A stretch of DNA of 64,000 nt, from contig CAKPDN010000001.1 in assembly GCA_934149005.1 (NCBI GenBank), forward strand, positions 199,128 to 263,127, in the 5' to 3' direction. Source of the DNA: an uncultured Clostridia bacterium. GTDB taxonomy: Bacteria; Bacillota; Clostridia; TANB77; CAG-508. The notes under the pieces are model-generated. The model ran no database searches. It was not told the DNA's origin and saw only the letters and a list, made by a program, of their open reading frames with translations. The translations under genes and the position numbers were made by a program. This document shows, in pieces, positions 40,649 through 41,042 of this stretch. Position 1 is the first letter of the stretch. The number at the start of each line of letters is the position of its first letter.

Positions 40649-41042
40649 GGTAATGCATTTCCTCAAGGGGACTGGTGCTTAAATATTTAATATATTTATT
40701 CATTGCATTTGCTAAAATTTATAATTGTTTATCTTGAGCCTCTTTCACTCAGGCTCTCAAAATCTTTTCTTTAACTATGAATAAATTTAAAGTGCAACTG
40801 GAATGAACATAGAAATTCTTAAATTTTTTATGGAAAGAGTTCGCTTTAGTGGAAGGGTGCCATAAAAAATTTATAGAATTTCTGGCGAATGAAAGGCAGT
40901 CAATAAATTTATGAATAGTAAAGAAAAGATTTTTACCCCGTGAACATTCCTCAAGATAAACAATAACAAATTTTAAAGCTCATTTCATTCAGTCATATAT
41001 TAAATATTTAAGCACCAGTCCCCTTGATTAAATGCATTACCC
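40649..41042. repeat. 394-bp element bounded by 46-bp terminal inverted repeats with two further nested inverted-repeat layers (MITE-like, inverton-like or structured RNA)
   Basis: left ggtaatgcatttcctcaaggggactggtgcttaaatatttaatatat vs right atatattaaatatttaagcaccagtccccttgattaaatgcattacc (31-bp perfect core); nested IRs 40725-40738/40950-40963 and 40759-40788/40905-40933. Confidence 0.6.

Follow-up and report, generated by a model that had tools for sequence, protein, structure and literature searches.

Interspersed palindromic repeats, among them REP, BIME, REPIN, ERIC and Correia sequences, have been well studied in Proteobacteria. For the uncultured low-GC Clostridia that abound in animal guts, hardly any such repeats have, to our knowledge, been described. 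Bacterial MITEs such as Correia/CREE, ERIC, RUP and the B. cereus element bcr1 are small, non-autonomous, intergenic sequences that form long hairpins, are present or absent between relatives and sometimes adjoin promoters (PMC3184786). In the classical case, they have terminal inverted repeats in common with a parent IS and make target-site duplications (PMC3184786). REPINs, which are mobilised by RAYT (Y1, HUH) transposases and whose hosts are Proteobacteria, consist of two conserved REPs of ~25 nt, inverted around a variable spacer (PMC3116915, PMC3333891, PMC2817692). They form populations of non-coding, intergenic long-hairpin sequences that are mostly vertically stable and have no transposase linked at each copy, and a folded imperfect hairpin on one strand is their proposed mode of recognition. 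Hairpin loops are also targeted by autonomous insertion sequences that carry their own transposase genes, IS1397 and ISKpn1 inserting into palindromic units and members of the IS110 family into REPs (PMC1525189, PMC12288879). Invertons, finally, are invertible promoters, short intergenic segments enclosed by inverted repeats (PMC11602134, PMC5903667).

Here we describe a rod-like composite element, a 428-bp imperfect palindrome at positions 40631-41058 of the window (the whole 64-kb stretch of DNA that was analysed). Our best reading is that its closest fit is a non-autonomous MITE/REPIN-like palindromic repeat. More specifically, we consider it, with a probability of roughly 0.65, to be an old and diverged member of a family whose repeats are interspersed, palindromic, rod-like and non-coding. 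This long-hairpin family resides in the chromosomes of uncultured low-GC gut Clostridia and is apparently undescribed, literature searches having returned nothing specific that could be its published equivalent.

An initial annotation of the locus had reported nested inverted repeats at 40649-41042, with terminal repeats of about 46 bp and a 31-bp perfect core, and had proposed that the whole segment can fold into one long imperfect hairpin. All of these layers are present and the extent is slightly larger. The repeat finder pairs an outer arm at 40643-40695 with its partner at 40995-41047 (53 nt, 94% complementary, ~33 nt perfect), and an extra 16-nt layer lies outside these arms (40631-40646 and 41043-41058). 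Further inwards follow a second layer at 40713-40738 and 40950-40975 (26 nt, 92%), a third at 40759-40789 and 40904-40934 (31 nt, 15 perfect) and an innermost one at 40820-40833 and 40860-40873 (14 nt, all perfect). Aligned with its own reverse complement, the palindrome is 74% identical over its full length, and the 35-nt arm core gave no chance match in 100 shuffles. RNA folding predicts a single rod on either strand, with -163 kcal/mol on the plus strand and -171 kcal/mol on the minus strand as against a mean of about -73 kcal/mol for shuffled controls (z-scores of -16 and -17.6, respectively). No ORF longer than 32 aa is found inside the element.

The window has a G+C content of 24.8% and its nearest genomes are metagenome-assembled genomes of uncultured gut Clostridia. 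It carries core chromosomal genes, encoding YicC, RsgA, Rpe, a PASTA kinase, PP2C, RsmE, rubrerythrin and a SCIFF peptide, and nearly all of its long ORFs are on the minus strand. The gene for the SCIFF-family peptide (43591-43737, minus strand; PF13165 in the second assembly, L001) lies ~350 bp downstream of the U32 peptidase gene that borders the element; SCIFF peptide genes are a marker of Clostridia. A search of all 64 kb (1-64000) against Rfam at the gathering score returned no family at all, be it a tRNA, riboswitch or leader. Some further repeats were noted in passing. A 42-bp tandem repeat at 36423-36739 (7.5 copies, 95% matches) is situated inside a 293-aa ORF (36373-37254) without confident Pfam match, in which it encodes a repetitive protein segment. 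Additionally, two perfect (CT)15 runs occur in this 25% G+C genome. The one at 48329-48358 is close to the 5' end of a 221-aa ORF without Pfam match (47716-48381), and the one at 59905-59934 lies shortly upstream of ORF 58966-59835; either may be a site of slipped-strand phase variation.

As initially annotated, the element lies between two divergent genes, a gene encoding a 590-aa protein on the minus strand (38788-40560) and the U32 peptidase gene on the plus strand. The 590-aa protein has no Pfam match and is kept at similar length and position in the relatives L057, L010, L009, L039 and L053. A promoter scan identified TTTACT-17-TGTTATAAT (41059-41087, plus strand; 10/12 positions, with a TG extension) as a strong promoter of the U32 peptidase gene, and this sequence is conserved in L043, L045, L048 and L057. 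It abuts the right end of the element, the last base of the palindrome immediately preceding its -35 hexamer. On the other side, TTGCAT-17-TATATT (40592-40620, minus strand), read by eye, is a possible promoter of the 590-aa gene, which was missed by the scan because its -35 hexamer matches only 3/6 positions; the surrounding block AAAAAAT(G)CAATAT is kept in L057. Given this putative promoter, the element sits exactly between the -35 regions of two divergent promoters.

In L057, L010 and L009, the 590-aa and U32 peptidase genes are adjacent without the element, and the intergenic region measures 68-109 bp as compared with 546 bp in the window. Relative to the syntenic L057, about 437 bp are additional in the window (40625-41061, with ends uncertain by a few AT-rich bases). 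The junction reads ...AATCAATAT|ACTTTATTAG in L057 and ...AATGCAATAT|TTTGC...AAATTT|ACTTTATTAG in the window. Since the flanks are conserved and some 437 bp are extra, the element is an insertion between back-to-back promoter regions. The comparison permits a target-site duplication of at most 3-4 bp (ATTT), in AT-rich DNA, and the short direct repeats seen at the ends of other family copies are inconsistent. A similar contrast is found elsewhere, as L066 has a family copy at a site that is empty in L072. In L045, whose U32 protein is 85% identical, a homologous hairpin of 192 bp precedes the U32 gene.

Family members were sought in two ways. Exact matches to the apex pattern GGAAAGAGTT-N6-12-GGAARGGTGCC numbered at least 120 in gut metagenome contigs and zero in viral contigs; the family is therefore not phage-borne. 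Plasmid and phage collections gave no blastn match, either to the element or to a consensus-like unit. The sequences around the apex matches align well, with evident compensatory changes. The covariance model R1 was built from an alignment of 35 non-redundant units analysed with RNAalifold. It recognizes the core unit of the window copy (40760-40932, plus strand), which is common to all family members, with 110 bits (E = 1e-20) on the plus strand and 30 bits on the minus strand. Metagenome loci yielded 105 plus-strand copies, typically scoring 130-180 bits, and the window copy is therefore a diverged member of the family. Within 982 kb of related genomes, R1 located five copies (L043 has two, whereas L045, L066 and L012 have a single one), and in the 64-kb window it found no second copy, which suggests roughly ten copies per genome. 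The initial annotation had listed a single copy among the findings that would speak against its reading. The copy is indeed single within the window but not across related genomes. The two copies in L043 (11407-11590 and 12329-12512) lie ~920 bp apart on the same strand, in a tandem duplication in which the 3' end of the neighbouring small gene is repeated as well. Both read GGAAGGGAGCC at the apex; the exact-pattern scan therefore undercounts the family.

The genes around the copies are unrelated housekeeping genes such as recA, mnmA, iscU, topA and that for PNPase. No recurrent element-linked protein family was found among 348 neighbouring proteins, and no transposase or recombinase was linked to any copy. 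All classes of orientation with respect to adjacent genes are represented, antisense-tandem by 26 copies, sense-tandem by 16, convergent by 21 and divergent by 11. Cores with 97% identity or more are found in 7, 6, 4, 4, 3 and 3 distinct flanking contexts, indicating fairly recent multiplication. Between strains with flanks that are 97-100% identical, the element stays at orthologous loci, and its activity is therefore low. The family has thus multiplied into many unrelated intergenic sites and is present at some orthologous sites and absent from others. Truncated, hybrid and decayed copies are also present (L200, L163, L149), and several apex matches fall at contig ends.

The palindromes fall into length classes of about 88, 180, 235, 315 and 430-550 nt. 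Units are either single (about 165-235 bp) or enclosed in additional palindromic layers, which bring them to as much as about 550 bp; the window copy is of this second, nested kind. In the core, CGAATGYG...TGGAG is followed by the stem TTAGAAATTCT and a variable stem, then by the apex, the mirror stems and ...AAGCCGAGG. Conservation peaks at the asymmetric apex and falls off outwards. The apical motif, GGAAAGAG-TTC-stem/loop-GGA-AGGGTGCC in the family and GGAAAGAGTTC-GCTTTAGT-GGAAGGGTGCC in the window copy (40832-40861, plus strand), is the most conserved part, and its inner stem covaries. Like the apex, a few small internal loops are conserved in sequence, whereas the stems are kept mainly by pairing, with some conserved arm sequence such as TTAGAAATTCT. 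The termini vary by subfamily, being GTTACTGGATAATAG..., AAATATAAG... or the window's own.

Large members, including the window copy, have two or more added layers with conserved small asymmetric modules. The layer-2 modules, GAGCCTCTCTCACTC.GGC (left) and CCGTGAGCATTCCTCA (right), are separated by 202 nt; in the window, GAGCCTCTTTCACTCAGGCTC (40736-40757) and CCGTGAACATTCCTCA (40938-40953), both on the plus strand, have this same spacing. The outer modules are GTTCATTACGTTCAAA on the left and TTTCACTCCAATCAAAC on the right. Between the outer arms and the second layer of the window copy, the left asymmetric loop TTATTCATTGCATTTGC (40696-40712, plus strand) is homologous to the former (alignment columns 104-120), and the right asymmetric loop AAGCTCATTTCATTCAGTC (40976-40994, plus strand) is the counterpart of the latter. 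The same modular rod is found in 10 other large members. The outer arms of the window copy, in contrast, have no genuine counterpart among the 1.9 Mb of family loci and no near-identical copy in any collection searched, and an exact search of genome and metagenome collections with a 20-mer of the arm core gave no match; the outer arms are therefore lineage-specific. Among the collected loci, outer-layer elements without a core are represented only by decayed remnants; no empty sites are seen in this biased sample because the loci had been collected through the core motif itself.

Small members extend over 163 nt from AAATATAAG to CTTATATTT. On either side they have locus-specific inverted repeats (6-17 bp) that contain G+C, have A- and T-tracts at their borders and resemble the long terminator stems of these genomes. 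This flank structure suggests that small members inserted at the centre of pre-existing hairpins, and such a preference would explain the nesting. One subfamily (L113, L130 and L174) has extra outer layers of G+C-rich modules (AGGGATTAGGGGACGTTC..., GGGGACACTCCTTAGC), which in L113 comprise about 230 nt on each side of the core. A GGGGAC block resembling these modules is present in the outer arm of the window copy (40666-40678) and beside L171. The G+C-rich outer modules may constitute a repeat in its own right, one in which the core is often lodged.

In the RNAalifold analysis of the 35 units, 36 of the 43 core pairs show double (compensatory) changes. The 11 large members (the window copy and 10 others) fold as one rod, in which 62 of 115 pairs have changed in a compensatory manner. 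Arm-to-arm correction within a palindrome can mimic such covariation. The loops AAAGAG and AGGGTG are invariant in alignment A3, as is a T.G pair in the apical stem, which is found in 87 of the 88 sequences of a larger set. In paired columns of the motif strand, G.T exceeds A.C by 57 to 27 when two special pairs are excluded, a count made on an alignment that had been fitted to the model. Many apical loops are GNRA-like (GAGA, GAAA, GTAA). Together, the G.T excess, the conserved wobble and the GNRA-like loops indicate that the motif strand matters as a folded single strand. They are compatible with RNA and with single-stranded DNA alike and do not distinguish between the two.

Covariation, an approximately 2:1 excess of G.T and a conserved wobble would be equally at home with a functional RNA. 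The structured non-coding RNA that the initial annotation had listed as a candidate would then be a rod-like molecule of ~180-500 nt with a functional apical motif, encoded by several gene copies per genome, for which the palindromic DNA is a mere template. Such an RNA would also be in keeping with internal loops that are conserved in sequence while the stems vary, and with the strong strand specificity of R1. However, both strands fold equally well, the unit has no conserved promoter or terminator, and its orientation with respect to neighbouring genes is essentially random, antisense-tandem copies being even more numerous than sense-tandem ones. Moreover, the copies are nested, truncated and recombined in the manner of repeats. 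A search of the window and 13 family loci against Rfam gave no match at the gathering score and chance-level hairpin matches when E values up to 10 were admitted, in agreement with the initial annotation, which had been unable to match the segment to a riboswitch consensus. On balance, we regard a non-coding RNA family as unlikely.

Other readings of the apex were rejected. A small conserved ORF running through it (...FMERV...GRVP*) is contradicted by the spacing within the apex, which varies by non-multiples of 3, and by the covarying stem. Sigma-54, CodY, Rex, k-turn and tetraloop-receptor readings, compared by eye, did not fit.

The same palindrome, in the same orientation, is found in an independent 11-kb ENA metagenome contig (L001) and is therefore no assembly artefact. 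Over 11,052 bp, the window and L001 differ at nine positions, all of them within a 94-bp patch (40843-40936). At four or five of these positions the L001 base is that of the family consensus, and at five the change creates a pair or improves one; the fold energy drops from -163.4 to -169.8 kcal/mol. The patch is compatible with one event of conversion or template switching, and also with a chimera between copies in the metagenome assembly. A DGR-type variable region was rejected as its cause, because the 64 kb contain no template repeat and the substitutions show no specificity for adenine. A Logan contig ends 62 nt inside the element of the window.

Improved arm pairing in L001 is also what quasi-palindrome correction would produce, and could be taken to favour a palindrome that arose locally by fold-back or template-switch duplication, with neither kinship to a family nor function. 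A different palindrome at the same site in the close relative L043 points in this direction as well: at 5843-5948, immediately upstream of the U32 promoter, lies a 106-bp palindrome that is 98% perfect and has in common with the window element nothing but the stem base TAGAATTTTTTATG / CATAAAAAATTCTA. Local generation is nevertheless largely refuted, because the core of the window copy matches the family model at E = 1e-20 and its outer modules are homologous to those of large members at unrelated loci; we attach next to no weight to it.

The centre of a family copy can flip: between two metagenome samples it is cleanly inverted, the 133 bp in the middle of L124 (1754-1886) being 100% identical to the reverse complement of the corresponding segment of L115 (636-768), and of that of L110. 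The inverted segment is bounded by ATATGTATATTGTTT / AAACAATATACATAT, a perfect inverted repeat of 15-25 bp, and the arms are near-identical. Other apparently inverted pairs proved to be different insertion sites or rearrangements. For the window, an inverton whose centre flips between inverted repeats and thereby alters the expression of one or both neighbouring genes (U32 peptidase and 590-aa) would agree with the repeats around the core and with its position between two divergent promoters. Yet the window and L001 have one and the same orientation, and of the copies in the family, more than 30 have a core that is forward with respect to the layer-2 modules, as against two with a reversed core (L124 and the hybrid L163). 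Since the interior is a palindrome too, a flip would make little difference. Inside the element, the promoter scan returned one weak match (TTTAAA-18-TATATT, 40972-41001, 9/12), and the total of promoter-like sites in the region is not above that of shuffled sequence. The genes beside the L124/L115 copy, of ~190 aa, were considered as possible serine invertases, but their sequences read as a membrane protein and a TetR-like regulator. A lone inversion can, moreover, come from ordinary recombination between 25-bp repeats. The fixed core orientation, the nature of these neighbours and the agreement between the window and L001 make routine phase variation unlikely, and the invertible promoter proposed by the initial annotation is not borne out at this locus; we judge an inverton very improbable here.

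Compared with the described systems, the MITE-like candidate comes closest of the three that the initial annotation had offered. The element is small and non-coding, it is missing from syntenic relatives, and the family occurs in multiple copies at unrelated loci, traits that it shares with bacterial MITEs along with long hairpins, an intergenic location and, at times, adjacent promoters. What does not carry over are the ends, as the family has neither terminal inverted repeats common to all members and shared with a parent IS, none of which was found, nor a demonstrable target-site duplication, so that the element is no classical MITE. Its termini differ by subfamily and its centre is conserved, which is the reverse of the classical case. 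The family resembles REPINs in being a vertically rather stable population of intergenic hairpins with no transposase linked at each copy and, possibly, in being recognized as a folded hairpin on one strand. In contrast to the two conserved inverted REPs that form the arms of a REPIN, here the centre is conserved and the arms, kept mainly by pairing, vary; a GTAG-type 5' motif was not seen. The host is a low-GC clostridium rather than a proteobacterium, and the density, about one copy per 200 kb in relatives, appears low beside the hundreds of REPINs per genome. The hairpin-loop targeting of IS1397, ISKpn1 and IS110-family elements is reminiscent of the position of small family members at the centre of terminator-like stems and of the nesting inside other palindromes, with the difference that the family unit is itself a non-coding hairpin, whose insertion into loops is deduced from its flanks. 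With invertons, the family has in common inverted repeats around a short intergenic segment and one related copy that is precisely inverted; unlike them, it has no convincing internal promoter and no invertase recognized next to it, its core orientation is fixed in nearly all copies, and it is dispersed without a tie to particular regulated genes.

Taken as a dispersed palindromic repeat, the family would be moved or copied in trans by a putative enzyme encoded elsewhere, which would probably recognize the folded apex on one strand of single-stranded nucleic acid. Insertion would favour the centre of existing hairpins or other AT-rich intergenic DNA. The window copy would have landed between two back-to-back promoters after the split from L057-like relatives, leaving the U32 promoter hexamers intact while the block with the putative 590-aa gene promoter also survived, and would have moved the two promoters about 437 bp apart. 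Exchange between copies or arms, to which the confinement of the L001 differences to 94 bp and the hybrid or truncated copies L163, L200 and L149 point, is counted in favour of this explanation. Against it we count that no transposase or recombinase is linked to the copies, that no target-site duplication can be defined, that the termini vary, that the loci are stable and that the window has but one copy, whose outer arms recur in near-identical form in none of the collections searched.

A bolder and more doubtful extension is that the family is a new kind of replicator, consisting of rod-shaped single-stranded DNA or RNA. Its apex, AUGG-AAAGAG-UUC...GGA-AGGGUG-CCAU with the fixed wobble, would be the site for the putative enzyme, and it would home into hairpin loops (terminators and other palindromes), thereby building nested, 'Russian-doll' palindromes of up to ~550 bp. 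We put this forward tentatively and think it rather unlikely.

For genome annotation, the family makes sense of a 0.4-kb palindrome between two promoters that would be puzzling by itself, and it cautions that shape alone is no ground for calling such segments invertons or riboswitches. The family is widespread in gut assemblies from human, rodent, rabbit, chicken and ruminant hosts, where it breaks contigs and marks points of rearrangement. Its invariant apex, covarying stems and nesting in hairpins point to a folded strand, and not to terminal repeats, as what is recognized, and the apex provides a defined motif with which the responsible enzyme can be sought.
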